From Desulfomonilia bacterium (GTDB taxonomy: Bacteria; Desulfobacterota; Desulfomonilia; UBA1062), in the NCBI GenBank assembly GCA_963664325.2, contig CAXXDQ010000007.1, positions 672,001-736,000 on the forward strand: DNA of 64,000 bases, in the 5' to 3' direction. A program made the position numbers and the translations under genes. The notes under the pieces were generated by a model. It ran no database searches. It had not been told where the DNA came from and saw only the letters and a program-made list of their open reading frames with translations. Below are positions 31,021 to 48,406 of this stretch, piece after piece; the stretch's first letter is position 1; each line of letters begins with the position of its first letter.

Positions 31021-31199
31021 ATACGACTCCTGAAAACTTTTATTAAATAATACATCGGCTGAAAAGAATGAAACCTGCAACTTAAAATCATACGCCGATG
31101 CATAATCGGAACATATTCTTTTTTTTAAAGTATTGCCCTGCCTCGGACTTTCTTCAAAAAACCAATGACATTTTTATCATATGCCTATAAATAACCGGT

Positions 31200-31862
31200 A
31201 TGAAAAAGACAGCCGGATTTATCGCAATACTGTTTGCGCTCCTGTTGCAAATGGGATGCTCCATGCCCCTGAGCATTCTGAACAGTGCCGACAGCGCGGA
31301 TATTTACAAGGCGTGGGGCGGAAGATACTGCACGGGTGACATGTATCTCGCGGGCAACTCTGAGATAATCCTGAGATTGGGAAATTACAAGCTTTATGGT
31401 GACAGCGTCCTTAGCAAGGCTCCCAAGCTGCCCTCATGCAGATATTATCTCATGCTGGTTTCCTCCGGGTATTCAAGGAGCGTCTTCCAGACGCCTTCAA
31501 CCCTGGTTGTCGTTATCGATGATGAGGCGGTAATCCCGCTCAGCATCTCGGGGGCCACCACAAGCGGGGCAAAAGGCAAATATCTGCTGTCCAATGCGCA
31601 GGACTCTCCGGCAACCCCCAATGCGGATGTGTACGAAATGCAGCCTTTCTACAAAAAAATTGTCTATTACGGCATTGACGCCAGGGTTATAAAGAGCATG
31701 GCCGAATCGAAAAAGCTTTACCTGAAAACGGAAAACAATATTTATGATCTCATGAAGCTAGACGACAAAAAGAAGTATGCCCCCCGGACGTTTATCGAAG
31801 GGTGCAGAAAGTTTTATTATGACGTGGTTTTAAGCCAGTGCGGCCCCATGAATGAAAAATAA
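31200..31862 (+). CDS. hypothetical lipoprotein
   Basis: Signal peptide with lipobox-like QMGC; no recognised domain. Confidence 0.65.
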   Translation: MKKTAGFIAILFALLLQMGCSMPLSILNSADSADIYKAWGGRYCTGDMYLAGNSEIILRLGNYKLYGDSVLSKAPKLPSCRYYLMLVSSGYSRSVFQTPSTLVVVIDDEAVIPLSISGATTSGAKGKYLLSNAQDSPATPNADVYEMQPFYKKIVYYGIDARVIKSMAESKKLYLKTENNIYDLMKLDDKKKYAPRTFIEGCRKFYYDVVLSQCGPMNEK

Positions 31863-32058: not shown

Positions 32059-32850
32059 CTACTTTTTCTTCGGGGGCATCAGCATATCCTGGATGCGCAT
32101 CATGAAGCTGCCCATAACGCCGGCATATTCAGGAGAGCCTTCCAGCTTGATGTCGCCGTCGGATGTCGCACTGACCGTATCCTTGCTTTCGCCCAGAACC
32201 TTGTAGGCGCCTTCGATGCCGTTAAATCTCATGTGCACAAACGGGGCCTTCCGTGCATATTTGCCGTGGCCGGCCTTTGTCTTTCCGGCTTTGATCCTCA
32301 AATAAGCGGCAGGGCCGTCAGGGTCCACCGACATCTGGTAAATCCTGTCGGGCTGCTTGCCGGTCCAGACCATCATATCCTCGTCACCGCCCTTGTTGAG
32401 CTGTGAAAGAGCATTGGTGATCATGTACATGATCATCTTCACCTTCAGTTCGCGCTTGGCGGGGTCCTTGGGATTCATGTTCGGCATCAGCAGCAAAAGA
32501 CCGAGCATAAGGAGCAGAAGCTTCCCGACAAGGGTGATCTTCGTAAGTCCCTTTGGAAAACCTGCCAGCACGGGAACCCCGCCCGTGAAAAGCGCGTTCA
32601 TGCCCGCTGCGTGCTTGAATGCAAGCGCCAGGTCGGGATTCGGGTGTATGCCCTGCAGGACATCGAGTTTTCCATCCTTGAATTCTAGGTACGCACCGGT
32701 ATCAGTCCCCTTGATGCAGAACTGGATCACGCCGTCATACTTGCCAAGAAGCTTCCTCACCGACATGTAGTCGGCCTCGTAAAGCACCTTGAACAACGGC
32801 ATGATCGACCGGAGCGCAATCCGGTTTGTCAGCATTACCTTATCAGCCAT
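32059..32850 (-). CDS. tandem SCP2 (sterol/lipid carrier)-like protein
   Basis: IQF...AYLEFKDGKL...PDLALAF and second repeat AYLRIKAGK...GDIKLEG. Confidence 0.6.
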   Translation of the reverse strand: MADKVMLTNRIALRSIMPLFKVLYEADYMSVRKLLGKYDGVIQFCIKGTDTGAYLEFKDGKLDVLQGIHPNPDLALAFKHAAGMNALFTGGVPVLAGFPKGLTKITLVGKLLLLMLGLLLLMPNMNPKDPAKRELKVKMIMYMITNALSQLNKGGDEDMMVWTGKQPDRIYQMSVDPDGPAAYLRIKAGKTKAGHGKYARKAPFVHMRFNGIEGAYKVLGESKDTVSATSDGDIKLEGSPEYAGVMGSFMMRIQDMLMPPKKK

Positions 32851-32862
32851 GAGAGTTCTCCT

Positions 32863-33870
32863 TTATGCCTCGTCTTCCCAGTTTTCGTCCTCTTCGATCT
32901 CCATCTTCAGAAGTGCGCCGACCGTCTCTACTATGCCGTCGGCATCGAACTTGTAGTGGTGATAGAGGTCTTCAGGGTAACCGACTATCGCAAAGATATC
33001 AGGTACTCCAAGACGCTTGAATGCACATGCCTTGCCGCTTTCGACGATCACTTCTGCGACTGCAGAACCAAGACCGCCCATAATGCTGTGGTCTTCGACC
33101 GTTACAATGCGGCGGGTTTCGGTGACAGCCTCAAGGATTGCATCCTTGTCTATCGGCTTTATCGTATGCATATTGATAACCCTTGCCTCCAGGCCCTGGG
33201 ATTTCAATACCTCGGCAGCCCTCATGCATTGAAGCACACCTACTCCGCAGGCGATAAGGGTGATGTCCTTGCCGTCCCTCATCTTTATGGCCTTGCCGAT
33301 CCTGTAGTCATAGTCCTGGGATTTATAAACAGGGGGCTCAAAACCGCGCCCGATCCTTATGTAAACAGGACCCTCAATCCCCATTGCCGCAACAACCGCA
33401 TTGCCCGTCTCAAAACCGTCGGCTGGCGCTATAACCGTCATGTTCGGGAAAGAGCGCATTATCGCCAGGTCTTCCGTGCAGTGATGGGTCGAACCAGCCT
33501 GGCCGAATGAAATCCCCGCATGGGTCGCTATGATTTTTACATTCAGCTTCTGGTAACAGATATCGGTCCTGACCTGCTCCGCACTCCTCAAGGAAGCAAA
33601 AGCCGCCATTGTAGAAACAACAGGGATCATGCCCGCCTGTGCAAGTCCAGCGGCCATTCCGAACATCGTGTTTTCTGCAATGCCTACATTTATAAACCTT
33701 TCGGAATACTTCTTTCCGAAGCGCCCGATCTTCGTAGAGCTTGCAAGGTCTGCGGTTATCGCTATGATATTGGGATACCTGTCACCTAATTGAGCAAGAA
33801 CTTCTCCATATATTTCCGCCTGTGTTAACTTATCGCCATCGGTTACCGACCAGCTCATACCTTCAGCCAT
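32863..33870 (-). CDS. transketolase, C-terminal (pyrimidine-binding) subunit
   Basis: ADLASST, GIAE, EQVR, GSTHH, GPVYIR, TIKPID, VEDH. Confidence 0.92.
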   Translation of the reverse strand: MAEGMSWSVTDGDKLTQAEIYGEVLAQLGDRYPNIIAITADLASSTKIGRFGKKYSERFINVGIAENTMFGMAAGLAQAGMIPVVSTMAAFASLRSAEQVRTDICYQKLNVKIIATHAGISFGQAGSTHHCTEDLAIMRSFPNMTVIAPADGFETGNAVVAAMGIEGPVYIRIGRGFEPPVYKSQDYDYRIGKAIKMRDGKDITLIACGVGVLQCMRAAEVLKSQGLEARVINMHTIKPIDKDAILEAVTETRRIVTVEDHSIMGGLGSAVAEVIVESGKACAFKRLGVPDIFAIVGYPEDLYHHYKFDADGIVETVGALLKMEIEEDENWEDEA

Positions 33871-33887
33871 GACTTACCTCCTCATCC

Positions 33888-34730
33888 TTATATTTCGCAA
33901 TAGCACTTGTCCAGACATGCGAGCGCCTGATCCCTGAGGTCGCTGTTGATCCCGCCGTAGTGCCACTGTGACTGGTTCTCAAACATTTCAACCCCTTTAC
34001 CCTTAACGGTATTGCATATGATCACCGTCGGCTTACCCTTGGTGGCCTGTGCCTTTTCGATCGCATCGCCGATCTGGGCAAAGTCATGACCGTCAATAGT
34101 TATGGTTTCCCATCCGAAGGCCTGGAATTTTGCATCCAGCGGTTCGAGGGATGTAATGTTCTCGGTCGGACCGTCAATCATGAGCTTGTTGCGGTCAACA
34201 AATAGCGTCAGATTGTCAAGTTTATGATGCGTTGCAATAATGGCTGCTTCCCAGTTTGTGCCTTCGCACAGTTCGCCGTCTCCCACCATGCAGTATGTCC
34301 TGTATGATTTTTTATTGAGTTTGGCCCCGACGGCAAGCCCTACCGCGATTGCAAGTCCGTGCCCCAGAGACCCTGTTGATGCATCGCAGCCTTTGACTTT
34401 AAGGGAATCAAGGTGCATGCCGAACGGGGAACCAGTCTTGTTGAAGTTCTTCAGCAGGTCTTTGTCGAAATACCCTTTTTCCCCCAGTACCGCGGCCCAG
34501 CCAACCCCGCCATGGCCTTTGCTCAGAATGAACCTGTCGCGATCGGCCCAGGCCGGATTTGCCGGATCGATATTCATATACTTCCAGTACAGGGCGACAA
34601 GCACGTCTGTCTGTGAAAGCGACCCTCCGAGGTGAGATCCGCCGCAGGTAAATGTGGTTTCGACAATCAGTTTCCTGATATCCCACGCCTTCTTTCCTAA
34701 TCCCTTGATTTCCTCTTTTGTTAACGGCAT
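33888..34730 (-). CDS. transketolase, N-terminal ThDP-binding subunit
   Basis: HLGGSLS, RDRFILSKGH, STGSLGHG, GDGE...N, TVKGKG. Confidence 0.92.
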   Translation of the reverse strand: MPLTKEEIKGLGKKAWDIRKLIVETTFTCGGSHLGGSLSQTDVLVALYWKYMNIDPANPAWADRDRFILSKGHGGVGWAAVLGEKGYFDKDLLKNFNKTGSPFGMHLDSLKVKGCDASTGSLGHGLAIAVGLAVGAKLNKKSYRTYCMVGDGELCEGTNWEAAIIATHHKLDNLTLFVDRNKLMIDGPTENITSLEPLDAKFQAFGWETITIDGHDFAQIGDAIEKAQATKGKPTVIICNTVKGKGVEMFENQSQWHYGGINSDLRDQALACLDKCYCEI

Positions 34731-34772
34731 TAAAACCTCCTTCCCCCGCCTTCCGGGGATCGATTTTTCGTT

Positions 34773-35411
34773 TCAGGGCTTTGCCCCGAAAATTTTCTTG
34801 CAGACCCATACCGTATCATCTATCAATTCCTCGGGTGATTTCCTGCCTTCGAGAAACGTCTCCTGCCTGATCTTCAGATAAAGCGAAATCTGTGAAAAAG
34901 TAAACATCATCAGATTATTGTCCAGGAAATAATTTGCGGCGTCAATATCCACGTCCGGGTGTATGTGGCCGGTAGCGATTCCGTCCTGCACGATCTTCTT
35001 GAAAAAAGTGTGCCCGACTTCCTCGATCGTCTTTGCATACTTTCTTGAGAAGTCGTCCATGCTGGATGACAATAGAGACATGTACAGCTGCAGGGCCTGA
35101 GGATTTTCCTTCGAAAATGAAAGCGCAGCCAGGAATATGGATTTTATTTTTTCAAAAGGGTCATCCCCCTTGTCGAGCCTGCTCGTGAACGTATCACCGA
35201 GAACGCCGATGCCCATTTCCAGGGTATCGCAGAAAAGTTCTTCCTTGCTGGTAAAATATTTGTACATTGCCCCGATGGATATTCCGGCTTTAGAGGCAAT
35301 AGTATTGATATTCGCTTTATAATAACCGTGTTCTGCAAATTCTCTCGTGGCAATGTCAAGGATCATCTGTTGTTTTTCGGGTGTTATCCGCCGGAATGTG
35401 CCTCTTGCCAT
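34773..35411 (-). CDS. TetR/AcrR family regulator
   Basis: FAEHGY...IASKAGISIGAMYKYFTSKEELF. Confidence 0.93.
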   Translation of the reverse strand: MARGTFRRITPEKQQMILDIATREFAEHGYYKANINTIASKAGISIGAMYKYFTSKEELFCDTLEMGIGVLGDTFTSRLDKGDDPFEKIKSIFLAALSFSKENPQALQLYMSLLSSSMDDFSRKYAKTIEEVGHTFFKKIVQDGIATGHIHPDVDIDAANYFLDNNLMMFTFSQISLYLKIRQETFLEGRKSPEELIDDTVWVCKKIFGAKP

Positions 35412-35452
35412 GTCTTGGTCTTCCCCGTAATTAATTCTTATTTTTAAATGAT

Positions 35453-35470
35453 AGCGAGCGACTGCTCGCT
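35453..35470. promoter_or_regulatory. probable TetR operator
   Basis: Perfect inverted repeat AGCGAGC-GACT-GCTCGCT between tetR and aor; TTGACA on both strands nearby (35493-35498 minus, 35531-35536 plus). Confidence 0.65.
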
Positions 35471-35629
35471 GACTACATGATGCTGTATTTATTGTCAAGA
35501 ACAATATTGTTCATAACTATTCATAATCAATTGACAGTCTTCAGGTCTTATCCTAATGATTATAGTCTTGGAAAAATCAGCCGCCAATTACTGCGGATGC
35601 ATTAAACAGCATGGAGGTTATTTAAATTT

Positions 35630-37819
35630 ATGCACTATACAAAGCAGCAGCTCAGGCATGGATATTCGAACCAGTATCTTGAAATTGATCTTAACAGCAA
35701 CGACATGATCATAAAACCTGTTGATCCAGCCGTAAGGGATTTTTTCATTGGAGGCAGAGGGCTGGGACTTTATTACCTCCACAAACTTACAGAACCAGGA
35801 ATGAGCGCTTATGATCCCCAAAACCCGCTCATCTTTTCCCCCGGGCCGCTTGGCGGCGTCCCCCAGTTTCCAGGGACAGCAAAATGCATGGCTGTTTCAC
35901 TATCTCCGCTTACCCATGTTCCCGGGGTATCCAATTTCGGAGGACATTTTGGTGCATATCTCAAATATGCGGGCTTCGATGCACTGCTTTTTACAGGCAA
36001 GGCGGATACGAATTCCATAATCATCATTGATGGATTCAAGAATGAGATATCAATCCAGGTTTCACCGTCCTGCGACCTTGTTTTCGACCTTGAGAAACAC
36101 CTCGTCGGGATGTTCACAGGTCAGGGTTATGAAAAAAAGCACATAGTGTTTCTTTCGACAGGGATCGGCGCGGCAAATACCACCTACGGCTGCATCAACA
36201 GCCATTATTTCGATCTCACAAAACCTGCAATGGATGGAACCAAAGGAATATGGAGGGTCAAGCAGGCAGGCCGGACCGGGCTGGGCACCGTCATGATGGA
36301 TAAAAAAATCAGGGCTGTCGTTGTTCTGGCCGACTACCCCAAGGGCGAAAACCCTTACGGTGCGGCTGACTGGGAAAAAGTAAAAGAATCCGGGCAAAAA
36401 CTCGGCAAGGTCGTACATGATGTTGACCCCCACTCTCTTCAGATGCACAGGAAAGGAAGCGCGGGACTTATTTCATTTATGAACAGGGATTCCTATTGCT
36501 CGCTTCCCGTAAGAAACTACCAGTTCGGCTCAGATGTCCAGGCCGAAAAAATCTGCGGCAAATACTATGCAGAGCATCTTTTTGATCACAGGGGCAACGA
36601 CGGCTGTTTTCCCGGTTGCAATCTGAGATGCACAAAAGGCGGATGTGTAACGCTAAAATCCGGCCGGAAAAAGGGCTTGCGGGTATGGGTTGACGGCCCG
36701 GAATATGAAACAGCCGCAGGTTTCGGCTCGAACCTGGGAATCTTCGATCCCGAGTTTATAATGGAGGCCAACTGGTATTGTGATGATTACGGCATCGACA
36801 CGATAACAGTTTCAGTTATCATGGCTTTTATCATGGAATGCTTCCAGAGGGGCTATCTTGCAAAAGACGACACCGGAGGTTTCGAACTCAACTGGGGGGA
36901 CGTGGCAGCCTCAGCCGCATTCATACACAATGTGGGCCGGCAGGAAACCGAACTCGCCAGGATAGCGGGAAAGGGCATGCTCGAACTTATCGACTGGGTT
37001 GCGGAAAAGTATATGCGGAGAACAGGAGAAAAAGATCCAAGGCCTGATCTCGAGCTGTTTGCGATGCACTCGAAAGGACTTCCGTTTTCTCTTTACAGGA
37101 CTCACCGCTCCCTTTCCATGCAGGGTTCTTATGCCGCCGCCAGCGACATAGGGGCACACCATGCCGCAGCATGGCTTATCAAAGCGGACCTGCTCGGCGC
37201 TTTTCCAAGCTTCGAGGACAAGGCGCGCGCGCTCATTACATATCCGCGCGTCAGGCTTGGGAATGACAACCTGGGGCTATGCAAACTTCCCTGGGTGGAT
37301 GTTTTCAATCCGGATTCAGAAAAATATACAAATACTGATATCTATATAAATCCCGCATCACAGGAGTTTTATGCAGGCTTCTATAACGGGATGCTGGGCA
37401 CAGACATGACCTGGGAACAGATTTTCGAGCAGACCGACAGGGATATAAACCTGCAACGTGTAATGAATGTCATGGTCTACGGGAGGGAAACCGGGTCACA
37501 TGACTGGATACCCGACCGTGCAATAGGCCCCACCACCGACAGCCTGTATGAAGCGGAAAAAGATTATAATGATGAAGAGGTTTCCCGAATAACAGGCAAA
37601 GACATTCCCGTTGTCAGACACATGAATATACCTGAAAAGAGGGAACTCCTTATGAAAAGCAGGAAAGACCGCCTGAAAAATCTGGTCCGGTCATATTATG
37701 AAGCCAGGGGATGGACTGCAGAGGGCATACCCCCAATAGAAACACTTGAAAAGCTCGGCCTCTGGCAATTCATCAGCGATGGAACAAAGGAGAGGCTTGC
37801 AGAACTTTTAAGCTCGTGA
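35630..37819 (+). CDS. tungsten-dependent aldehyde:ferredoxin oxidoreductase family
   Basis: FIGGRGLG, SPLT, AGRTGLGTVM, CxxxCxxxC, GPEYET, DDYGIDTI, YYEARGW. Confidence 0.9.
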   Translation: MHYTKQQLRHGYSNQYLEIDLNSNDMIIKPVDPAVRDFFIGGRGLGLYYLHKLTEPGMSAYDPQNPLIFSPGPLGGVPQFPGTAKCMAVSLSPLTHVPGVSNFGGHFGAYLKYAGFDALLFTGKADTNSIIIIDGFKNEISIQVSPSCDLVFDLEKHLVGMFTGQGYEKKHIVFLSTGIGAANTTYGCINSHYFDLTKPAMDGTKGIWRVKQAGRTGLGTVMMDKKIRAVVVLADYPKGENPYGAADWEKVKESGQKLGKVVHDVDPHSLQMHRKGSAGLISFMNRDSYCSLPVRNYQFGSDVQAEKICGKYYAEHLFDHRGNDGCFPGCNLRCTKGGCVTLKSGRKKGLRVWVDGPEYETAAGFGSNLGIFDPEFIMEANWYCDDYGIDTITVSVIMAFIMECFQRGYLAKDDTGGFELNWGDVAASAAFIHNVGRQETELARIAGKGMLELIDWVAEKYMRRTGEKDPRPDLELFAMHSKGLPFSLYRTHRSLSMQGSYAAASDIGAHHAAAWLIKADLLGAFPSFEDKARALITYPRVRLGNDNLGLCKLPWVDVFNPDSEKYTNTDIYINPASQEFYAGFYNGMLGTDMTWEQIFEQTDRDINLQRVMNVMVYGRETGSHDWIPDRAIGPTTDSLYEAEKDYNDEEVSRITGKDIPVVRHMNIPEKRELLMKSRKDRLKNLVRSYYEARGWTAEGIPPIETLEKLGLWQFISDGTKERLAELLSS

Positions 37820-37832
37820 TTATATCCTGATC

Positions 37833-38735
37833 ATGCCCCATACCGATGAGATCCTGACAATACTTTTCGCCGACATATCCGGCAGCACGGGCCTTTATGA
37901 ATCGCTGGGCAATGAGGCTGCCCACAGCATAATCAGGGAATGCCTTTCAATGCTCGGGGTCACGGCCCGTTTGCACGACGGTGAAGTCATCAAAACCATG
38001 GGTGACGGAATCATGTGCTCTTTTCACGATGCAGCAAACGCAACGGATGCGGCTATCGCAATGAACCAGGTAATCGATCAGATTGCAGGCAGACAGGCTG
38101 ACAAGCATATCGTTCCGAATATAAGAACCGGATTTCATACAGGTCCGGTTATACGCCGGGAAAACGACATATTCGGCGATGCGGTAAACGTTGCCGCCAG
38201 AATGGCTTCCCTTGCCAAACCGAGGCAGATAGTGACAACGAAATCAACTGTCGATAGCCTCCCGGATTTTTTCAAGGAGAAGACCGGATTTTTTGACAGG
38301 ACGACCATCAGGGGCAAAGGCGGGGAATTCGACATTTATGAAGTCATCTGGGAGGAAGGCAACCAGACCGTCATCATTAAGACCGAGCAGCCACAACAGG
38401 AACTTGAAAGCTTTATGAATGTCGTATCCGGTGAAAAAAAAGTCAGTGTAGACAAATCGAACCCGGCAATCACCATAGGCCGCCAGGAGCATAATACAAT
38501 TGTCATCGACGACAACATGGTATCCCGCTCCCACTGCAAAATCGAGTATCACAAGGGAAAATTCATATTCATCGATCAGAGTTCGAACGGCTCTTACATA
38601 CATGATGAAGACGGGCATGCCGTTTACGTTCACAACGACGAATCCGTCCTCGGTGAAAAGGGTTTTATAAGCCTCGGGCGTGACGGCATGCAGAATTCCA
38701 TGCTTTCCATCTCATTCAAGAAAAAACTGCGGTAG
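37833..38735 (+). CDS. class III adenylate cyclase with C-terminal FHA domain
   Basis: LFADISGST, IKTMGDG, DIFGDAVNVAAR; FHA GR...VSRSH...SSNG. Confidence 0.9.
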   Translation: MPHTDEILTILFADISGSTGLYESLGNEAAHSIIRECLSMLGVTARLHDGEVIKTMGDGIMCSFHDAANATDAAIAMNQVIDQIAGRQADKHIVPNIRTGFHTGPVIRRENDIFGDAVNVAARMASLAKPRQIVTTKSTVDSLPDFFKEKTGFFDRTTIRGKGGEFDIYEVIWEEGNQTVIIKTEQPQQELESFMNVVSGEKKVSVDKSNPAITIGRQEHNTIVIDDNMVSRSHCKIEYHKGKFIFIDQSSNGSYIHDEDGHAVYVHNDESVLGEKGFISLGRDGMQNSMLSISFKKKLR

Positions 38736-38754
38736 TATAAGGGCATACTGTTCT

Positions 38755-39894
38755 ATGATACTTTTCTTCCTGATATATCTTACTTTTTACGGCTCTATGC
38801 ATACCTATGCATTTTTCAAGGCCAGGGCAGCGCTGAAGTTCGGCAGAAAAAGAGGCATGCTGATAGCAATTTTCATGTTATTCATGATGTTCGCTCCAAT
38901 TATCACAAGGACACTCGAACATTCAGGCCATGAAACTGCTGCGCTGATTGTCGCTTATACCGGGTATATATGGATGGGGACACTTTCGATATTCATCATA
39001 TTTGCAATCCTGATCGGGATATACAGGCTGATTGCATTTGCCGCAGGAAATTTTTTCATGAAAGATACCGATGCATATATTCCCTCTGCTTTCAGCGCCT
39101 TCATTATCCCTGTTTTTCTGGCTGTTATTCTCGCCGGATACGGTATTTACGAAGCGCTGAATATAAAAACCGAACATATTGCAATAAATACCGCAAAGAT
39201 CCCGCCATCAGCGGGCAGGATAAGGATTGTCCAGATATCAGATGTCCACCTCGGTCTTATGGCGGGAAGGCACCGGCTGGAAAATATTATCAAATCAGTC
39301 GAGGCTGCCAATCCGGATGTTCTTGTCTCAACTGGTGATCTTATCGATGGCCAGCTTGATGACATTGAAGGCAATATAAAATTGTTAAACCGGATAAATC
39401 CGAGGCTTGGAAAATTTGCCGTTACCGGCAATCACGAGGTTTATGCAGGTTTATGGGTTTCAATAAAACTGACTCAGTCCGCGGGATTCAGGATGCTGAG
39501 AGATGAAGCAGTGGCTGCTGGTGACTCGCTCGCCATCGCAGGCTTTGATGACAAGGGGCACTCTCAACCCAAGATATCGGATATACAGGTGGAAAAAGAC
39601 ATCCTTTCAAAGCTCCCTCATACCAGGTTCATTATAGTCCTAAAGCATAAACCTGAAGTTGCAAAAGAGATATACGGGCTCTTTGATCTTCAGCTTTCAG
39701 GCCACCTCCATGGCGGACAGATTTTCACTTTTATCCCGCTTCTCAGGATCGCCTACCCCTATATTTCCGGACTTCATGAACTTCCTGACAGGAGCAAGCT
39801 CTATATAAGCCGAGGGACCGGGTTGTGGGGCCCGCCAATGCGTGTTTTCGCACCTCCCGAGATAACTGTAATCGATCTGATTCCCCTTAAGTAG
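38755..39894 (+). CDS. membrane-anchored metallophosphoesterase (YkuE-like)
   Basis: 4 TM segments then SDVH, GDLID, GNHE, GHLHGGQ. Confidence 0.9.
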   Translation: MILFFLIYLTFYGSMHTYAFFKARAALKFGRKRGMLIAIFMLFMMFAPIITRTLEHSGHETAALIVAYTGYIWMGTLSIFIIFAILIGIYRLIAFAAGNFFMKDTDAYIPSAFSAFIIPVFLAVILAGYGIYEALNIKTEHIAINTAKIPPSAGRIRIVQISDVHLGLMAGRHRLENIIKSVEAANPDVLVSTGDLIDGQLDDIEGNIKLLNRINPRLGKFAVTGNHEVYAGLWVSIKLTQSAGFRMLRDEAVAAGDSLAIAGFDDKGHSQPKISDIQVEKDILSKLPHTRFIIVLKHKPEVAKEIYGLFDLQLSGHLHGGQIFTFIPLLRIAYPYISGLHELPDRSKLYISRGTGLWGPPMRVFAPPEITVIDLIPLK

Positions 39895-40083
39895 CCATTC
39901 ACGGCTATGAACTACGAGTTGCAAAAGGCAGTATGACGGGTTGATAACGCTTATTGTTTATTATTCCTATTTATTGTTCGTTTGCAAATGCTCACGAAGG
40001 TTTTTCGCGATGCCAATGTTTACCTTGACATGCCTGATAAGTTTGTCCAAACATATCGGGAAACGGATAACAGCGGAGGGTCT

Positions 40084-41073
40084 ATGATCAAAACAGCCAT
40101 TACCGAGATGTTCGGGATAAAATACCCGATAATATGCGGGGCAATGATGTGGCTATGCAAGCCGCAGTTATGCGCCGCCATTTCAGAAGCCGGAGGCATG
40201 GGCAATATCACGGCAGCAAATTACGAGACCGAGCAGGACTTCAGGAATGCAATAGCGGAAGTCAGGGAACTTACAAATAAACCTTTCGTAATCGGACTGA
40301 CACTGCTCCCTTCAATCAGAATTACAGCGGAACACCATCAGATGTATATAAAGGTCTGTGAAGAAGAAAAGGTGCCGGCGATTGAGGTATCAGGCACCCC
40401 TCTTGACAAGGTGGTAGGAATGGAAGGCGTAAAAAAGCTTAAAAAGGCCGGAGTCAGGCTGTTTCACAAACTGGGATCAGTCAGGCATGCAATCCATGCG
40501 GAAAAAGCCGGGTACGACGGAGTCTATGCCGCCGGCCTCGAAGAAGGCGGGCATCCGCTGAGTGACGATGTTACAACAATGGTTCTGACACCCCGCATTG
40601 CAGAAACAGTCAAGATTCCTGTTGTGACGGTCGGCGGGATTGCAGACGGAAGGAGTATGGCCGCCGCCCTCACGCTTGGGGCACAGGGCGTCATGATGGC
40701 GAGCCGTTTCATTGCCACCAAGGAATGTACCGTCCATGAAAAAATAAAACAGGAACTTATTAACCGCCAGGAAAACGACACCCGCATATTCGGCAGATCA
40801 ATAGGACTTCAGGGCAGAGCCCTAATTAACAGGGTCATCGGAGAGGTCTTGAAAATCGAATCCGAGGGGGGCGGGCTCGACAAGCTTATACCGCTCATTG
40901 CCGGTCCCCGAATCAAGCAGGCATGGGACGAAGGCGATGTCGAAATGGCGCCTTTAATGGTAGGCCAGTCCATCGGGCTTATTCACGACATCCTCTCATG
41001 TAAGGAACTGCTGAATAAAATGCATGATGAGGCAGTTGCCTGTTTGAATAAGACAACCGCCCTTATTAATTAG
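40084..41073 (+). CDS. nitronate monooxygenase / FabK-like FMN oxidoreductase
   Basis: IKYPIICGAM, EEGGH, GGIADGR, GQSIG; GGAGG RBS. Confidence 0.88.
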   Translation: MIKTAITEMFGIKYPIICGAMMWLCKPQLCAAISEAGGMGNITAANYETEQDFRNAIAEVRELTNKPFVIGLTLLPSIRITAEHHQMYIKVCEEEKVPAIEVSGTPLDKVVGMEGVKKLKKAGVRLFHKLGSVRHAIHAEKAGYDGVYAAGLEEGGHPLSDDVTTMVLTPRIAETVKIPVVTVGGIADGRSMAAALTLGAQGVMMASRFIATKECTVHEKIKQELINRQENDTRIFGRSIGLQGRALINRVIGEVLKIESEGGGLDKLIPLIAGPRIKQAWDEGDVEMAPLMVGQSIGLIHDILSCKELLNKMHDEAVACLNKTTALIN

Positions 41074-41112
41074 ATTGCTGCGCGTTTAAATTTATATTTC
41101 AAGATAATCAGG

Positions 41113-41152
41113 AAAGGGGCTTGCCGGAATATCCTGCAAGCCCTTTATTTTT
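41113..41152. terminator. terminator between convergent NMO/FabK paralogs
   Basis: GGGCTTGC-CGGAATATCCT-GCAAGCCC flanked by A and T tracts. Confidence 0.65.
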
Positions 41153-42199
41153 CTACTTCATCATCTTTGAAAGCTTTGTGGAAACTTCTTCAGCCTCTTT
41201 GACCATCCTGTCAAACAGTTCGGCGACACTCGGCAGATCTTTAATCAACCCCGTGTCCTGGCCCACCGGAAGTACCCCGGTTTTTATATCTCCGGCCTCG
41301 GTAGCATCCTTTATCGCCTTAAAGGCATTGGCCATATATGCAAGCTGAAGCGCATTCTTCATGCCCGACGCCAGCACACCTATAAACAGTTTGATATAGG
41401 GCAGGTGTATCTGTTTGGCTATGTCGGCCGAATTGAAAAGCGCTTCGATCATTTTCTTGACATTAAGACCGTTGCGGATGGCAGTATGCGCCGCCGGCGT
41501 ATCAAGCACGCGGCAGCCCAAGCCGTCGAACCTTGTTGAATATAGAGTATCATAGACGTCTTTTTCAATGGAAAGCTTCTTGAAATTATCGTGAAGCGGG
41601 CTCTCTTTCGTTGACATCAGGCGTGTACCCAATGCAACTCCTTCGGCGCCAAGGGCAAGAGCTGCGGCCAGCCCGCGCCCGTCAGCTACACCTCCTGCCG
41701 CAATGACAGGAATCTGTACAGCAGAGGCAATTGTCGGAATGAGCACGAATGTTGTAACATCGCCGCCGTGAGCTGCCGCTTCATGGCCCGTCACTATAAC
41801 GCCGTCTACGCCGTAATCCTGCGCACGTCCGGCATGCCTGTGGTTTACTACGGTCGCCAGCACCTTGCCGCCGTACTGATGAGCCTCTTTAACTATCCAG
41901 TCGCCTTTGCCCAGGGCAAAGTTTATAACCGGAACCCTCTCAGCAAGGGCGACCTTCGCATTGTCCGAAGCCCCTGGGAAAAGCAGAGATGCATTTATGC
42001 CAAACGGCTTGTCGGTGAGAGCCCTAATCTTCTTGATTGAAACCCTGGTCTGTTCGGCATCCAGAGGACCTGTCGCAAGGATTCCAAGACCGCCCGCATT
42101 TGATACGGCGGCAACCATTTCAGGTACGCTTATCCAGCTCATGCCGGAAAGCAATATCGGGTATTTTATGCCCAGTGCTTCGGTGATACGCGTCTTCAT
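41153..42199 (-). CDS. nitronate monooxygenase / FabK-like FMN oxidoreductase
   Basis: IKYPILLSGM, EAAAH, AAGGVADGRG, GTR; AAGGAG RBS before ATG 42199. Confidence 0.88.
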   Translation of the reverse strand: MKTRITEALGIKYPILLSGMSWISVPEMVAAVSNAGGLGILATGPLDAEQTRVSIKKIRALTDKPFGINASLLFPGASDNAKVALAERVPVINFALGKGDWIVKEAHQYGGKVLATVVNHRHAGRAQDYGVDGVIVTGHEAAAHGGDVTTFVLIPTIASAVQIPVIAAGGVADGRGLAAALALGAEGVALGTRLMSTKESPLHDNFKKLSIEKDVYDTLYSTRFDGLGCRVLDTPAAHTAIRNGLNVKKMIEALFNSADIAKQIHLPYIKLFIGVLASGMKNALQLAYMANAFKAIKDATEAGDIKTGVLPVGQDTGLIKDLPSVAELFDRMVKEAEEVSTKLSKMMK

Positions 42200-42251
42200 A
42201 ACGGCTCCTTCAAGTATTTTCAAAACATTATATACTAAAGACCCGATCTTG

Positions 42252-43221
42252 TCAGCGCTTGATATTCCCGGGCAGTATATACGGATACGGCTTGTTGAAA
42301 ACCTTCAAGTGCAGGAACCTGTCAAATTTCCTGAAAGCCAGATACAGCCGCCAGATGAGCGCGTCTTCCTTATAATAATCATCGATTTCATCAACCGTAA
42401 GCGGGGTGATGCCCAGAGCGGAACATTCTTCGACGAAGAAACGGTTTGCCTTATCGACAAGCCCGGGTATCAACTCGCTCCTCTGTTCCTTGTGAAAGTT
42501 TGCAATCAGGTCGATAGCCACTTTCCTGAAATCATAATACCGGTTCATTACTTCGCTAAGGAAAAAGAGCCTTATCACCCATCTTAAAAATGATGGTGTG
42601 CTTCTGAGGAAGAGCTCCGGGTTTAAGCGCTCCTTGCCGCTTCGCCTCATCAGCGGAGTGCTGGTATCAAGGTAAAAAAGCCCTGTTCTGTCGTTGATCT
42701 CAATTCCGTCGCGCCATCCTGAAACCGCCCAGTTCGAAATCTGCCCGTCAATGCCGACCTCGTCACCGGGATGCGCTGCATTAAAGTCAAAGACTTTTTT
42801 CATTTCCCTCAAGACCATAAGGATAAGCGTATTCACGGAAGCAGCATCTATGTTGTGTATCAGGGTATTGCAGATCGATCCCGAAGGCAGTCTTTTCTGT
42901 GCGTTGTAAATTACCAGATTGCCCTTCTCTGGTATGACCATAACCGAGGCAAATGCAGGGATATCCAGGCCGATGGAACTCAGGAGTGTGTTATATTCGT
43001 TGAAAAGAAGCTCATATTCCTGCATTTCCTGACTGTTCAAGAAAATAGGCATTCTTTTATAGGCAAGACCCTCCTGCCCTGGCTCGTCAATTACGAATAT
43101 GGTGCTCATTTCGCCGTAGCCTATTATCTTAGCTGGGGATCAGGCTCCTGTCCGGGTAAAGCGGATTCAAGCCTTTTTCAAATTTCGAGATATGGTTGTT
43201 GTCTATCTGTTCTTTTATCAT
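42252..43221 (-). pseudogene. DUF6206-like kinase-fold protein with a 1-nt frameshift near the 5' end
   Basis: RBS-preceded ATG 43221 reads MIKEQID...FEKGLNP...LIPS* (ATC CCC AGC TAA). The +1 frame continues AKIIGYGEMSTIF into ORF 42252..43109. Confidence 0.65.
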
Positions 43222-43232
43222 GGAGTCTCCCT

Positions 43233-44492
43233 CTATATCAGTCCAAGTAATTTTTCAGCATCTGAAAGCGACAGATCAACCCTGTCAAGAATTTCATCAG
43301 CCAATGCGGCATCTGCAATCAGCGGCGGCAGGAGCTGGCTGATCCGTTTGTCGTTATTTGCATAGATGCTCAGGACGCCGTTGTCATAGCATGTCCTCGT
43401 CATTACCGGTCCGCACATGTCATTTGCCATTTCAATACCCATCATCAGACCAAGTCTTCGCAGTCTTACAAGGATTCCGGGGTGTCTTTTCATAAGTTCA
43501 TCAAAACCTTTTGCTATCCGGTCTGAAATGCTCGCAACGTTTTCAAGGAATCCGGCCTGTGATGAAATATCCAGCACCTTCATGGCAACAGGGCACCCGA
43601 CCTCGGCGCCTCCGAACGTAGATATATGGATAAACGGATTCGCGTGGAAGAACGTCTGGAGCTCTTTAGTGAAGCAGGTGGCGCTCATGGGATATATACC
43701 GCCTGAAAGGCCTTTGCCTATGACCATGATGTCGGGTGAAACACCGAAATGTTGAATTCCCCAGAGTTTTCCCGTCCGTCCAAGACCCGTCTGAACCTCA
43801 TCCATTATAAGCAGTGCCCTCTTCTTTTCGCACATATCCTTTACATAAGAAAAATAATCGGCATCAGGAACCGGCATTCCCAGCGTTGCGGGTATTGTTT
43901 CGAATATGACGGCAGCCGTGTTTTCATCAACAGCAAAGTCAATGGCCCTTTTGTCATTGAAAGGAATCTGTATGAAACCGGGCTGATTGGGGCCGAACGG
44001 CGCCCTGTACTGTTCATCGCCGGTTGCGATTGCAAATCCAGTATGGCCATGGTAACCGCCGTTTGCTGAAATTATCTTCTGCCTGCCCGTGTAGCCTCTC
44101 GCAAGCTTGATGGCCAGGTCGATCGCCTCCCCTCCTCCCGAGCCGAAGACCGTATAGGTGAGCCCTTCAGGTGTAAGCCCGGCCAGCTTTTCGGCGAGAA
44201 TTGCCCTCTGCTCGCTTATGAGGTGATGATTGCCTATATCGAGTTCATCAAGCGCACCCTTCAGCGCTTCGATAATCTCCGGGTTTCTGTGCCCCAGGTT
44301 GAATACGCCGCCGTTGGAATGGCAGTTGATAAGCCTTTTGCCGCTCACTGCATCCCAGATAAAGGGCCCCTGCCTTTTGCCAAAGACAAAGTCAATGCCA
44401 ACGCTTTTGAAAAATTCAGCCTTGCCCGAAGAAACATAAGCTGCAAACCGGTTTATAATACCTTCTTTTGAATCCGTCCCGATATGACTCAT
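43233..44492 (-). CDS. class III PLP aminotransferase
   Basis: GGEAIDLAIKLAR, YHGHT, DEVQTGLGRTG, GKGLSGG, STFGG. Confidence 0.92.
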   Translation of the reverse strand: MSHIGTDSKEGIINRFAAYVSSGKAEFFKSVGIDFVFGKRQGPFIWDAVSGKRLINCHSNGGVFNLGHRNPEIIEALKGALDELDIGNHHLISEQRAILAEKLAGLTPEGLTYTVFGSGGGEAIDLAIKLARGYTGRQKIISANGGYHGHTGFAIATGDEQYRAPFGPNQPGFIQIPFNDKRAIDFAVDENTAAVIFETIPATLGMPVPDADYFSYVKDMCEKKRALLIMDEVQTGLGRTGKLWGIQHFGVSPDIMVIGKGLSGGIYPMSATCFTKELQTFFHANPFIHISTFGGAEVGCPVAMKVLDISSQAGFLENVASISDRIAKGFDELMKRHPGILVRLRRLGLMMGIEMANDMCGPVMTRTCYDNGVLSIYANNDKRISQLLPPLIADAALADEILDRVDLSLSDAEKLLGLI

Positions 44493-44599
44493 ACACTCTC
44501 CGTTTTATGTGATAAAATATGTTAAATAATATCTTTAAAATTGAGTGAATCAAGTGCTGGAAAGCATTTTCCGATAGCAGTCATTATGAAAACATCCAT

Positions 44600-45376
44600 T
44601 CATTCATCCTTCCATTTATATCCGCTGAGCGCCCATAAAACGACGTTGGTTCCGTAAAACACCCAGACCAGCCTGAACATGATTTCGGAAATGTTGCCAA
44701 GGCCCAGATTGTATATTTCTCCGAATATCTCCGTCAGGTACCAGCAGGTGGCTGCGATAGAGACCATCCATGCATTTATTTTCGGATAAAGTCTGTTGCG
44801 CAGCGTTTCCCATGCAAACCACATTGTGGTGCAGAAAAATGCGGTATAAACAGGCGCAATTGCTGCATGCCCTACACGTACAATATCTGTCCATAGTATT
44901 AATATGACAGCAACCGCCGAGCCGTATATTGCAAGAGGCAACCAGAAACGGGAAATTCCGCCCGCACCCTTTTTCAGATATGGCAAACCCCGGCTGATAC
45001 GTATAATTAGAAAAATATGGGCTATAATTGACAGAACCCCGCCCAGCATAAAAACCCATGATCCGACGCTCAGGGAAGGGCTAACAACAACCACGCTCAT
45101 GAGAATATCTGTGGGAAGCATGCAGCAGAAAGCGGCGAGAAGGAGCCTGAAATCCCTGTCGTTCAAACGGTCCCTGCCGGTAATCAAAACTATAACCATT
45201 GATAACAGTGTAATAACTGGCTTGCCAACGGCCGGATAAAGAAACTTTGTGTTTTCAAAATAATTCATCCAGTCTACGCCGAATACAGACCCTGCCAGGA
45301 TAAGAATCAGTCCAAGAATGCTGAAAACAAAAATACGTTTATGCCCGGAAAATGATCCCCTGTTTTGCTCCGTCAT
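44600..45376 (-). CDS. YhhN/lysoplasmalogenase-like membrane protein
   Basis: 7-8 TM segments; KP, TDILM, AH, WYLTE, WVFY pattern. Confidence 0.5.
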   Translation of the reverse strand: MTEQNRGSFSGHKRIFVFSILGLILILAGSVFGVDWMNYFENTKFLYPAVGKPVITLLSMVIVLITGRDRLNDRDFRLLLAAFCCMLPTDILMSVVVVSPSLSVGSWVFMLGGVLSIIAHIFLIIRISRGLPYLKKGAGGISRFWLPLAIYGSAVAVILILWTDIVRVGHAAIAPVYTAFFCTTMWFAWETLRNRLYPKINAWMVSIAATCWYLTEIFGEIYNLGLGNISEIMFRLVWVFYGTNVVLWALSGYKWKDE

Positions 45377-45419
45377 GCCTTTCCTCCTTCAAGATATTTT
45401 GCAGATCAGGACGTCCAAA

Positions 45420-47459
45420 TCATTCAAGCCTTTCTTGAAGTTCAATCCTGAACCTGAATTTGCAGTCGTCTTCGAACCACATCGGGAAATTTGTCCCCCA
45501 GATGTTATTGTGAAGATTGAAGTGCAGGCCTTTGCCTGCATCGGGAATCAGGTTGTGAAAGTCTAGGAGTGAAGGGCTGTCAAATGCAACAAGGTGGGCA
45601 TCTGGACTTTCTATAATAATACCTTCTTCGTTTGAGTCATAATAAACGCCTTTACTTATTGCCGACAGTGAACGGTTCCCTTTTGATACAACATCTTTAG
45701 GCGACACTCGGGTACCTAGTTTATCCATATACCAACAAACGGAAGCGGTCCTGTCAAACTGGAAAGTAAACCATGAAGCCTCGGCAATCCTGCAGGCGCT
45801 TTTATTAAACCATTGCAGGGTTATCTCAAGTTCAGGTTTTTCATCCGGGAAGTTGTACAATATCTGAAGCATTCCCGGTGCACCAAGCCTTTTAACGGCG
45901 TAATAGGGCATCTCAATTTCGGTAATGATCGAATCATCTTTAGAATAAATTCCCGCCACATGAGGGAAACACCTTTTGTGTTTTAGCCCCAGCCTTCCCA
46001 TGCCCGGTTTGCTGTAATCGTCTATCGACCAGTAAAAATTATTTCCAAAGTTTTTGATAAATTGTCTGAAAAACCGGCGGTAATCTCCTGATGAAAAATT
46101 CTCGTACATGAAAAGCCCTATCCTGTTGCTGCCGGAACACCATACACGCCCTGTTTTTCTGTGCCTCAGGTAACATATTGAGCCATTAACTGTATCAATC
46201 TCAATATCGAAATGCCTTGTGCTTATTCCTGCCGGTTTTAGCTTTTTAAAGTCTCTTGTGTCAAACAGTACCGGCTCCAATTCCTTGATCGCTGATGTTG
46301 TTTTTTCTGCTAAAGGGGTATTTCCCAGTATCTTAACGGAATCTTCAATATAGCCCCTCTGCTCCATCCAGGATGTCTCGAACTTTCTGCATTTTTCTTT
46401 TTTTCTGAGCTCGGTCAGCCCCTCTTTTGAATAGTGCCAGTAATTCCTGAGATGTGTCTTCTCATCCATGCCCCACGTATGCTCTGCAACACAGATAAGG
46501 TTGTCCCTGACCTTTTCCAGAACAGGCTCTTTCCCCCCTTCGATCAGGCGTAATAGTGCTCTCATTCGTGTTGTTTTCCAGGGGTCGGTTTCTGTACCAT
46601 GAATCCAGGTATCACCGATTTCTTCTCTTACAACAGGAAGTTTTTCCTTTCTGGCAACCGCGGCAGCGGCAAAATCGTTCAGATTTGCAGCTTTTACAGA
46701 ATCCGGATTGAACTTTTTCCTCGCCTTCTCAAAAGCAATCCTGACGCCTTCAGGAGATTGAGGTCCTATATTGTCCAGTGTATGGGCGAACATGAAAAGA
46801 GAATCTCCCAGGATTGTCTGTCCGCCATAACCTTTCTTGTCATAGACAACAATGACTTCAGCGCCATTCTGATGTCGCCATATAAAACTTTCCGGTACAC
46901 CAGGCGGAGTCGATGCATTGTTGACGCCTATATGAAGCATTTGTATCCCTGCCTCGGCAAGAAACGGAACCATCCCTATTGTGTGTCCGGGCACATCGGT
47001 CATCTTGGCACCAATCGTTTTTTTATCGAACCTTTCATCGAGTTTTCTTGATATACTCAAACCATATCTAATCAGGTCGGGGGTCAGTAACTCTGTATGG
47101 GTAGTAAAAGGAAGTCCGTGCCACACAATATCGCCTTCAGCCAACGCTCGTTCAATGTCCGAAAGAGCCTTTCCTGAGGCAATTTCAAGATAATGCCATA
47201 TTATCCATGATCCCAGTGTCCAGATAAACCGGGCTTCGCCTGATTCGGATTTCAGTTGGTTTGCAGTCCTTATTGCCTTTGGTATGAAATCCTCGAAATA
47301 CTGTTTAAGAACATTAGCAGCCAAATCTGTAAAACCCATATCAAGATGCGTTTTAAAAATAATGAACACCCTGTCAGGTTCAGGGAATGTTTCATTCTTT
47401 TCCGTTTTTCTTTCCTTATCAGACATATATCTTGACATATCTTCCCATGTCTTTATCAA
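45420..47459 (-). CDS. DUF5054-like glycoside hydrolase (GH38/57-like fold)
   Basis: KTHLDMGFTD, MTDVPGHT, EIGDTWIHG, EHTWGMD, NNIWGTNFPMW. Confidence 0.75.
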   Translation of the reverse strand: MIKTWEDMSRYMSDKERKTEKNETFPEPDRVFIIFKTHLDMGFTDLAANVLKQYFEDFIPKAIRTANQLKSESGEARFIWTLGSWIIWHYLEIASGKALSDIERALAEGDIVWHGLPFTTHTELLTPDLIRYGLSISRKLDERFDKKTIGAKMTDVPGHTIGMVPFLAEAGIQMLHIGVNNASTPPGVPESFIWRHQNGAEVIVVYDKKGYGGQTILGDSLFMFAHTLDNIGPQSPEGVRIAFEKARKKFNPDSVKAANLNDFAAAAVARKEKLPVVREEIGDTWIHGTETDPWKTTRMRALLRLIEGGKEPVLEKVRDNLICVAEHTWGMDEKTHLRNYWHYSKEGLTELRKKEKCRKFETSWMEQRGYIEDSVKILGNTPLAEKTTSAIKELEPVLFDTRDFKKLKPAGISTRHFDIEIDTVNGSICYLRHRKTGRVWCSGSNRIGLFMYENFSSGDYRRFFRQFIKNFGNNFYWSIDDYSKPGMGRLGLKHKRCFPHVAGIYSKDDSIITEIEMPYYAVKRLGAPGMLQILYNFPDEKPELEITLQWFNKSACRIAEASWFTFQFDRTASVCWYMDKLGTRVSPKDVVSKGNRSLSAISKGVYYDSNEEGIIIESPDAHLVAFDSPSLLDFHNLIPDAGKGLHFNLHNNIWGTNFPMWFEDDCKFRFRIELQERLE

Positions 47460-47787
47460 TGCAACTACAATATTATTCGAAATATTGCAGCGTCAAGGAT
47501 TGTTCCTTCATTATGTTTAATGATGACAAGATAACGAAAACAATAAAATAAACTCCGGTTACAACAGCCCTGGCAAGCCATGACAATACAAACATTATAT
47601 TCTTGACAATCCTTCATTGCTGTCGTAATGCTCCCATGCAACTGAGATTCGAGTAATCCAATACCGAAAATGACCTTCAACAACATCTCGATGATCCTAT
47701 TCGGCAATTGAAATAAATCGTTTTTCAGAAATACAAAACAGTTTGTATTCCCTTTTCCTGAGACTACAAACAAGACACGAGGTAGAA

Positions 47788-47991
47788 ATGGCTAACGGAA
47801 CAGTAAAATGGTTTAATGAACAGAAGGGTTTTGGATTTATTACCGCGGAAAACGGTCAGGATGTTTTTGTACATTTCTCGGCCATTAAAGCTGAGGGTTT
47901 CAAATCACTCAACGAAGGCGACCGTGTATCTTTTGAGATAACCAACGGTCCAAAAGGGCCTCAGGCAACTAATGTAACAAAGGCAAAATAG
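47788..47991 (+). CDS. cold-shock protein (CspA family)
   Basis: [29 protein letters not shown]. Confidence 0.97.
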
Positions 47992-48001
47992 TTTTTCCAA
48001 C

Positions 48002-48025
48002 GGCGGCTTGCTGCCGCCCTTTTTT
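48002..48025 (+). terminator. intrinsic terminator after csp
   Basis: GGCGGC-TTGCT-GCCGCC-CTTTTTT. Confidence 0.75.
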
Positions 48026-48032
48026 GAAATTT

Positions 48033-48227
48033 ATGGGAAATAAATCACATCACACTTTTAAAAAAAACGAGCGTGAAAAGATTAAACGCCAGAAAAAGGC
48101 AGACAAGCTCGCAAAAAAAATCGAACTTAAAAAATCCAAACCTGAAATCCTTCCCCGAGAGGACGGATTTGATCCCGACATCGCAGACATAATCCCTGGA
48201 CCTCAAGCGCGACCGGATGAAGTATAA
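48033..48227 (+). CDS. small basic hypothetical protein
   Basis: Lys-rich helix then DPDIADIIPGPQ; no clear RBS. Confidence 0.5.
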   Translation: MGNKSHHTFKKNEREKIKRQKKADKLAKKIELKKSKPEILPREDGFDPDIADIIPGPQARPDEV

Positions 48228-48349
48228 CTCTTAAAAAAAAGACAGATAACCGGCTTACTATAATCAGATATTTTTGAATCGCTGCAAGTCGTATTTCAAA
48301 ATAAGAAAACCATTATTACGAGTATAATCGTAGTGTTGAATTCCTGAAT

Positions 48350-48382
48350 AAAAAACCCTCAGGTAAAAGTATATCTGAGGGT
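48350..48382 (-). terminator. terminator of alpha operon
   Basis: ACCCTCAGGTA-AAAGTA-TATCTGAGGGT with U-tract on minus strand. Confidence 0.75.
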
Positions 48383-48406
48383 CTTATTAAAAAAGATGAT
48401 TATTTT

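Follow-up and report, generated by a model that had tools for sequence, protein, structure and literature searches.

A stretch of 64,000 nt from a Desulfomonilia bacterium (GenBank assembly GCA_963664325.2, contig CAXXDQ010000007.1, positions 672,001 to 736,000), referred to here as the window, carries in the part under study (positions 32059-47459) a TetR-led operon in which a split transketolase stands directly beside a gene for a tandem SCP2-fold protein. Our comparison across genomes suggests that this operon is one arm of a scattered regulon for a long-chain vicinal amino alcohol of the sphingoid type, and we consider it on balance probable, judging from gene content and residue patterns, that the regulon passes the amino group of its substrate to pyruvate and then uses thiamine diphosphate (ThDP) to cleave the amino alcohol to a fatty aldehyde. 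What was observed directly is the genes and their co-occurrence across genomes, the palindrome that they share and the altered residues of the active site. The original prediction for this DNA had already proposed that a lipid amino-diol is transaminated and then cleaved by an SCP2-assisted transketolase; that idea fits the comparative evidence, but the aminotransferase it named does not, and the enzyme that does fit is FumI-like and encoded on another contig.

The transketolase and SCP2 genes

All genes named in the original prediction were found where it had placed them (open reading frames, ORFs, and Pfam), and both the TetR-led operon and the palindrome before it were borne out. The operon runs leftward throughout (minus strand): the TetR-family regulator at its head (34773-35411), a core member in this family, is followed after ~40 bases by the N-terminal, ThDP-binding subunit of the split transketolase (TK-N, 33888-34730), after ~20 by the C-terminal subunit (TK-C, 32863-33870) and after ~10 by the partner gene SCP2a (32059-32850), and these last three are core as well. 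Close homologues, where named, carry Desulfomonilia or Deltaproteobacteria labels. SCP2a matches the Pfam SCP2 family (PF02036, E 6.6e-7), its predicted model (pLDDT 91) has two repeats with the same order of elements, and nearly all top Foldseek matches of that model are SCP2 proteins or alkylsulfatases, so that the Pfam score over cut-off, the model and the fold search agree on an SCP2 alpha/beta fold.

A genome scan found 275 relatives of SCP2a, and the flanks of the best 80 were fetched; counts out of 80 refer to these loci. TK-C lies within the fetched flank in 72 of them, and the other eight comprise three in which SCP2a sits near a contig start and five records titled Planctomycetota. 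An orthologue of the TetR gene is present in 13. In a phylum sample of 301 evenly drawn genomes, a TK-C of this clade occurs in 14 (at least 574 bits with the transketolase profile, followed by a gap down to 438), and these are exactly the 14 genomes with a strong SCP2a match; we call them cassette genomes. One carrier of the cassette is in culture, Desulfatibacillum alkenivorans DSM 16219 (NZ_FQZU01000005.1, locus L093). In the five Planctomycetota-titled records (L055, L063, L065, L069, L084), a DUF255 thioredoxin-like gene adjoins SCP2a in two.

The alignment shows a transketolase with intact catalytic machinery and an altered pocket. In TK-N, His33, His73, His106, His257, the GDGE motif and Asn181 are invariant in 63/63 rows, and the ThDP/metal motif and the catalytic His/Glu set are invariant in all 63 TK-N and 69 TK-C rows. 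All 69 TK-C rows have Ala for the Asp of the GEDG motif (Ala125 in the window); for the Arg of the REAYG motif, 61/69 have Ala (Ala18 in the window) and 5 keep Arg, so the pair expected of a sugar-phosphate split transketolase is missing; all 16 of the ordinary split transketolases next in rank keep both residues, and the Asp is also found in 6YAJ. By motif, we take this Asp to be Asp469 of the E. coli enzyme and the Arg to be Arg358, with a role towards phosphate. Both positions are named as specificity sites (PMC7661550), changes at Asp469 are reported to raise transketolase activity on aliphatic aldehydes (10.1101/719906), and the pocket changes seen here thereby fall at positions which, according to these two sources, engineers mutate to admit non-sugar aldehydes. 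The best solved relative of both subunits is the split sugar transketolase of Carboxydothermus hydrogenoformans (6YAJ/6YAK; E 5e-82 and 4.8e-74; PMC7661550), which has the cofactor and catalytic residues in common with them and differs in the two pocket residues and in the tie of gene order to SCP2. TK-C is 45-50% identical to ordinary split transketolases.

FumI-like partner, alanine dehydrogenase and operator

The second half of the cassette is encoded elsewhere in the same genome (G000, whose contigs are labelled C2, C3, C4 and C7 below). On C2, positions 146362-148359, lies a pair made up of a second tandem SCP2 gene, SCP2b, and a FumI-like class III aminotransferase gene (C2:146362-147594); SCP2a and SCP2b are full-length paralogues (probability 99.8). 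The link between these genes and the transketolase is seen where the operon is intact: the FumI-like class III aminotransferase gene stands beside the transketolase genes in 22 of the 80 loci, in the order SCP2b-aminotransferase-TK-N-TK-C-SCP2a, and in 20 of the 52 loci that have at least 3 kb upstream of TK-N. The record titles of the 22 include Desulfobacterales, Hydrogenedentes, Verrucomicrobia, Myxococcales and Leptospirales. SCP2b is present in all 14 cassette genomes of the phylum sample, and in each of the 13 other than G000 it is directly followed by the FumI-like gene, although in 12 the pair lies away from the transketolase. A break-up of the operon thus leaves each enzyme with a carrier gene of its own. 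An alanine dehydrogenase gene, found on C3 from 495134 in the window's genome, occurs in 13/80 loci and in 9/9 transketolase loci of one family (f14).

By far the best solved relative of the cassette aminotransferase is FumI of Sphingopyxis sp. MTA144 (6HBS; E 2.5e-105, against 3e-49 for the next), and the copy on C2 likewise has FumI as its best full-length relative (E 3.8e-98 over residues 10-410; next 4.7e-47). FumI is reported to deaminate a long-chain 2-amino-3-hydroxy compound, 2-amino-icosane-3,5,10,14,15-pentol, with pyruvate, giving the 2-keto compound and alanine (PMC3136697), and the formation of alanine fits the linked alanine dehydrogenase. FumI differs from the system described here in having no transketolase or SCP2 partner and no step after the 2-keto product, as far as the part of PMC3136697 consulted goes. 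The FumI family is found in 30 of the 301 genomes.

Two further settings of such genes were seen. In the window's genome, a second FumI-like aminotransferase gene directly followed by an acetolactate-synthase-type thiamine enzyme begins at C3:813919 (L120:9911-12342), behind MFS, GntR and two flavoprotein genes; this set may form an amino-alcohol route parallel to the first, with a different thiamine enzyme. In family f14 (L123-L133), an enoyl-CoA hydratase gene precedes the SCP2b-aminotransferase pair, which lies near a full-length transketolase or fused E1 dehydrogenase gene.

What appears to join the scattered parts is a palindrome. The candidate operator in the window (35453-35470) lies 42 bp ahead of the TetR start and forms a perfect inverted repeat of 7-4-7 layout. 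Of 12 loci with an orthologous TetR gene, 11 have a similar site before it, and the remaining one is truncated by the end of its contig. With a matrix built from nine sites of other genomes, from which the window and its two closest relatives were excluded, the top three sites in the 4.3 Mb genome stand before SCP2b (C2:148384, score 24.1), in the window (20.8) and before the alanine dehydrogenase gene (C3:495092, 18.2). The first of these is 24 bp before the SCP2b-aminotransferase pair. Within the family, SCP2b is preceded at 23-31 bp by a site in 12 of the 16 loci (12/15 genomes), and in all four genomes of the window's genus one stands 24 bp ahead of the alanine dehydrogenase gene. Among control upstream windows 6/841 hold a scoring site, and all six belong to genes divergent from TetR. 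A site was also seen before TK-N in seven Spirochaete-titled loci, and none was seen before SCP2b in the two genomes that have SCP2b without a transketolase of the clade. From the placement of these sites we infer that TetR, a predicted repressor, controls the three candidate sites in the window, before SCP2b and before the alanine dehydrogenase gene.

The fourth-best site (C7:59128, score 17.8) lies between a TetR-like gene and a DUF362 paralogue, with a score within the shuffled range. Elsewhere on C7 (15100-21700; L114:7118-13697) there is an orthologue (~50%) of the TetR seen beside intact operons, adjoining genes for a phospholipase A1, another class III aminotransferase, an FGGY kinase and an endonuclease/exonuclease/phosphatase protein.

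The proposed route and its rivals

In the route that we propose, the FumI-like aminotransferase together with SCP2b would move the 2-amino group of the substrate to pyruvate, leaving a 2-keto-3-hydroxy lipid, and alanine dehydrogenase would return the alanine to pyruvate and ammonia. The split transketolase would then attack the keto group through ThDP and break the C2-C3 bond, releasing a fatty aldehyde and passing the two-carbon head to an acceptor, with SCP2a presumably holding or delivering the lipid. An aldehyde oxidoreductase might finally make the fatty acid, the step for which the genes argue least.

Each half of this route has a known model, FumI for the first and, by analogy, DesAB of Clostridium scindens for the second. 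DesAB is described as the split transketolase of an anaerobe, encoded in an inducible operon, that, without oxygen, cuts two carbons from a lipophilic ketol (PMC3735941, PMC12065433, PMC12876203). Compared by description, its operon partners are 20-hydroxysteroid dehydrogenases and a transporter, whereas those of the window's system are an aminotransferase, a pair of SCP2 proteins and alanine dehydrogenase; no DesAB chain is among the PDB matches of TK-N or TK-C, and the neighbours scanned show no conserved arrangement with desC/desE and desD, a short-chain dehydrogenase gene recurring at some loci (below). The path of sphingosine kinase followed by sphingosine-1-phosphate lyase also cleaves between C2 and C3 and would likewise end in a fatty aldehyde shortened by two carbons, but it is described as using ATP and a pyridoxal-phosphate (PLP) lyase and freeing phosphoethanolamine (PMC8954241), in place of transamination and ThDP. 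The same source gives the kinase-lyase route and, in the part consulted, has fumonisin degradation stop at the 2-keto compound.

Among the top results of the literature searched, which left most subscription journals outside, there was no description of the cassette or of the route; Table S1 of PMC13663882 may bear on this. It is possible, though somewhat less likely than not, that anaerobes of several phyla degrade sphingoid bases without oxygen or a kinase in this way, with a carrier-paired FumI-type aminotransferase forming a 2-keto-1,3-diol, a carrier-paired transketolase releasing the fatty aldehyde and one TetR regulon joining the scattered parts. Sphingolipids enter sediments, digesters and guts in bulk, and the catabolic route in the literature searched is the kinase and the phosphate-dependent lyase. 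If the proposal is right, FumI would have been recruited out of sphingolipid catabolism, and the clade of transketolases described here would be a natural catalyst for long-chain aldehydes and the second natural lipid-cleaving transketolase beside DesAB. With five named proteins, a regulator and three DNA sites to work from, and with a carrier in culture, the use of sphingoid bases by strict anaerobes becomes directly testable.

The distribution of ceramidase leans towards sphingolipids as the substrate: a neutral-ceramidase family match is present in 5 of the 14 cassette genomes and in 8 of the 287 others. The window's genome is one of the five, although its gene (C7:586281-587925; L215:1318-3508) is split over two frames. 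Several observations weigh against a sphingoid substrate or against the regulon. Nine of the 14 cassette genomes have no ceramidase match, many of the matches are partial, and related genomes are not independent. The C2 enzyme is ~40% identical to FumI (161/401, counted by hand from the alignment), below the 61-74% of further enzymes reported to act on hydrolysed fumonisin (PMC9858248), and no sphinganine assay is reported for FumI in the part of PMC3136697 consulted. A FumI-family gene occurs in 16 sampled genomes without a transketolase of the clade, two of which have SCP2b and an aminotransferase 72-73% identical. In the five Planctomycetota-titled loci no TK-C was found in the flank of SCP2a; the flanks are 10 kb long in three of these, and the other two are short records. 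A sister clade of transketolases (three genomes), which has neither SCP2 nor aminotransferase, has also lost both Arg and Asp, so that the loss of these residues does not by itself mean a lipid substrate. As to the operator, two sites scoring at least 20 also turned up in 2 of 10 block-shuffled genomes, and sites scoring at least 16 numbered 5 against a shuffled mean of 3.2; the score by itself is modest evidence, and it is position and not score alone that carries the regulon claim. No site precedes the alanine dehydrogenase gene in 3/3 loci of two other genera, and among 19 intact operons the site stands before SCP2b in 8 and is missing in 11.

The main objection, and a real one, is stereochemical: D-erythro bases give a 3R ketol. 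The original prediction had warned that this is opposite to the preference of transketolases, and the warning holds up, since ten split transketolases are reported to have kept their S-selectivity (PMC13663882) and Asp469 variants to stay S-selective (10.1101/719906). The difficulty may be met by a threo or 1-deoxy substrate, by the changed pocket, or by epimerisation through glyoxalase-fold and dehydrogenase genes. Genes of these last two kinds directly precede the transketolase genes in three relatives, and in the window's genome they lie on C4 (473213-474595), in a set (471855-475352; L121:6856-10611) of TetR, glyoxalase-fold, short-chain dehydrogenase and DUF362 genes.

This stereochemical difficulty would disappear if the same two reactions acted on a different lipophilic amine, for instance a steroid or hopanoid with an amino-polyol side chain, or a secondary metabolite, in the manner of a steroid-17,20-desmolase. 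SCP2 folds are established binders of sterols as well as acyl chains, as is also seen among the fold matches, DesAB is itself described as a split transketolase for a steroid ketol, and 11/80 loci have a short-chain dehydrogenase gene close to the cassette. We nevertheless hold this to be unlikely, though not negligible: the partner is of the FumI family, known to act on a linear C20 amino-polyol, the recurrent neighbours scanned include no desC- or desD-like family, and DesAB is described as far from other transketolases (34%), whereas TK-C is much nearer to the ordinary split enzymes. Both reactions are established as reversible, and the route could run backwards, a fatty aldehyde being extended by two carbons through the transketolase and the ketol then aminated by the aminotransferase, which would make sphingoid-like lipids without serine palmitoyltransferase. 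Wild-type split transketolases are reported to add hydroxypyruvate-derived units to pentanal (PMC13663882), and alanine dehydrogenase could supply the alanine. The patchy distribution of the cassette (14/301), the amino-acid permease genes that flank the operon in one family and the lack of any acyltransferase or glycosyltransferase family among the recurrent neighbours scanned make synthesis decidedly unlikely, and the position of the candidate operator just 3' of a promoter-like site suggests inducible repression instead. Less probable still is a small water-soluble amino polyol or amine as substrate, with the SCP2 proteins as structural subunits that carry no lipid. Permease and putrescine-aminotransferase-like genes do join the operon in one family, and three residues that we take to be phosphate contacts (Ser45, His117, Arg172) are invariant; but each enzyme retains its own tandem SCP2 when the operon splits, the SCP2 fold matches lipid-binding domains and the FumI family is known to act on a C20 chain.

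The original prediction went further in reading the whole 15 kb as one pathway, in which a DUF5054 protein (45420-47459, minus strand) and a YhhN-like membrane protein (44600-45376, minus) free the base or aldehyde, the window's own class III aminotransferase (43233-44492, minus) deaminates it and the divergent tungsten aldehyde oxidoreductase (AOR; 35630-37819, plus) oxidises it, all under the same TetR. There is something to be said for it: the two clusters lie within ~10 kb of each other in 2/3 same-genus genomes, DUF6206, encoded next to the aminotransferase, is present in 5 of the 13 other cassette genomes against 10 of 287, all six genomes with the YhhN-like protein also hold the cassette, relatives of the window aminotransferase occur in the transketolase operon of f14, and 7/80 loci have an AOR of another subfamily close to the cassette. 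The locus counts largely refute it, however, and we give it very little credence. The window-type aminotransferase, DUF6206, the YhhN-like gene, DUF5054 and the window-type AOR are found in 1, 1, 0, 0 and 1 of the 80 loci (for the first two, in a same-genus genome), so the co-occurrence that the prediction called for failed to appear and the clusters and AOR were not confirmed as one conserved unit. In the window's family of 24 genomes the cassette occurs in 18 and DUF6206 in 16, and they coincide in 11, where 12 are expected by chance, which bears out the prediction's own caveat that the clusters may be unrelated. The matrix finds nothing like the operator in 42200-48420 (best score 1.8), the window aminotransferase has no equivalents of two residues of putrescine aminotransferase (below), and the YhhN-like gene has other, unrelated neighbours elsewhere. 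The amino-alcohol regulon is thus our preferred reading, with DUF5054, the YhhN-like gene and the window AOR as local passengers.

Other genes of the window and side observations

The AOR gene is a member of the tungsten AOR family by its domains (AFOR_N E 1.8e-41, AFOR_C E 1.2e-80, Pfam), its solved relatives all being distant (best E 1.5e-48), and is accessory at most to the transketolase operon. Its subfamily is present in 3/24 family members, and six AOR-family matches were found in the window's genome. AOR was considered as a target of the operator and is not supported: the gene divergent from TetR varies among relatives, the operator stays on the TetR-transketolase side whatever gene diverges, and one same-genus genome keeps the operator without this AOR, so that there is no evidence of AOR control. 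The AORs of another subfamily near the cassette fit an aldehyde product, but their weight is weak because six of the seven loci are related Spirochaete-titled records.

The aminotransferase of the second cluster was rejected as the transketolase partner. Its identity to the FumI-like group is 24%, and a quick tree (40 rows) with long branches, of which we use the broad split alone, places it in a different clade; FumI is not among its 29 PDB matches at 1e-40, which places it outside the FumI clade. Its nearest solved relative is putrescine aminotransferase (PatA), whose Glu243 and Arg426 presumably bind the 2-oxoacid in transamination. The window protein has Thr203 and Gln386 there, and none of seven aligned members has Glu or Arg in these columns, which sets it apart from putrescine/ornithine aminotransferases. 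It directly precedes the DUF6206 gene in 11/12 family loci. DUF6206 (42252-43221, minus; Pfam E 1.4e-21) has a protein-kinase-like fold in the model of a 92% identical homologue, with weak Foldseek matches (E ~1e-4, TM 0.3-0.4), and the two-gene module is likely to be a kinase and phospho-lyase for an amino alcohol. Pairs of this kind, of the ethanolamine-phosphate phospho-lyase type, share with it a kinase-fold protein behind a class III fold that lacks the two transamination residues; the window pair differs in its frameshifted DUF6206 and in having no close sequence match to a characterised lyase among the solved relatives of its aminotransferase.

In family f14, putrescine-aminotransferase-like genes with permeases lie in the transketolase operon in 7/9 transketolase loci, and the other two loci end early. 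Their intact copies are 41-44% identical to the window aminotransferase, and the two aligned keep Glu and Arg. The same kind of set, a putrescine-aminotransferase-like gene, a 119-aa ORF without Pfam match and an amino-acid permease gene, stands alone in G000 at C3:521384 onward (L116:11385-14787) and inside the TK-SCP2a operon in f14 (L140-L147).

The remaining members of the cluster were rejected as pathway members on their distribution. DUF5054 (Pfam E 3.6e-46) was not found in 40/40 relatives with the window protein as query. The YhhN label amounts to a remote language-model likeness (Atlas, 0.93; 28 of 30 matches YhhN), with no Pfam match (PF07947 or other) at E<=0.01 and none on the 120 listed of 244 homologues; the gene is not at this position in 3/3 same-genus genomes. 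Of the co-oriented run that had been described, the identities of DUF5054, the aminotransferase, DUF6206 and an NMO/FabK-like flavoenzyme were borne out, except that there are two flavoenzyme genes, not one, and they are convergent (39982-41073, plus; 41153-42223, minus); these NMO genes, also rejected, adjoin the others in the same genus only.

The start of the DUF6206 gene was corrected to 43221, with a +1 frameshift from one extra base near 43133-43137 relative to 3/3 same-genus genomes, which may be an assembly error or real. A second split transketolase on C7 (602937-604694; L117:7935-9752) is ordinary-looking and has frameshifts in its C subunit, and together with those in DUF6206 and the ceramidase gene these suggest indel errors in the assembly.

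The loci of the sister clade (L205-L207; G187:C5:41836, G275:C5:175923, G125:C69:147012) encode proteins 54% identical to the window TK-C, and glycyl-radical-enzyme-like ORFs lie upstream of the transketolase in two of the three. In the window itself, an asparagine-synthetase-like amidotransferase gene and a gene for a 220-aa protein without Pfam match (29119-31862) flank the operon in the same genus only, and an adenylate-cyclase/FHA gene and a metallophosphoesterase gene (37833-39894, plus) are same-genus neighbours outside the system.

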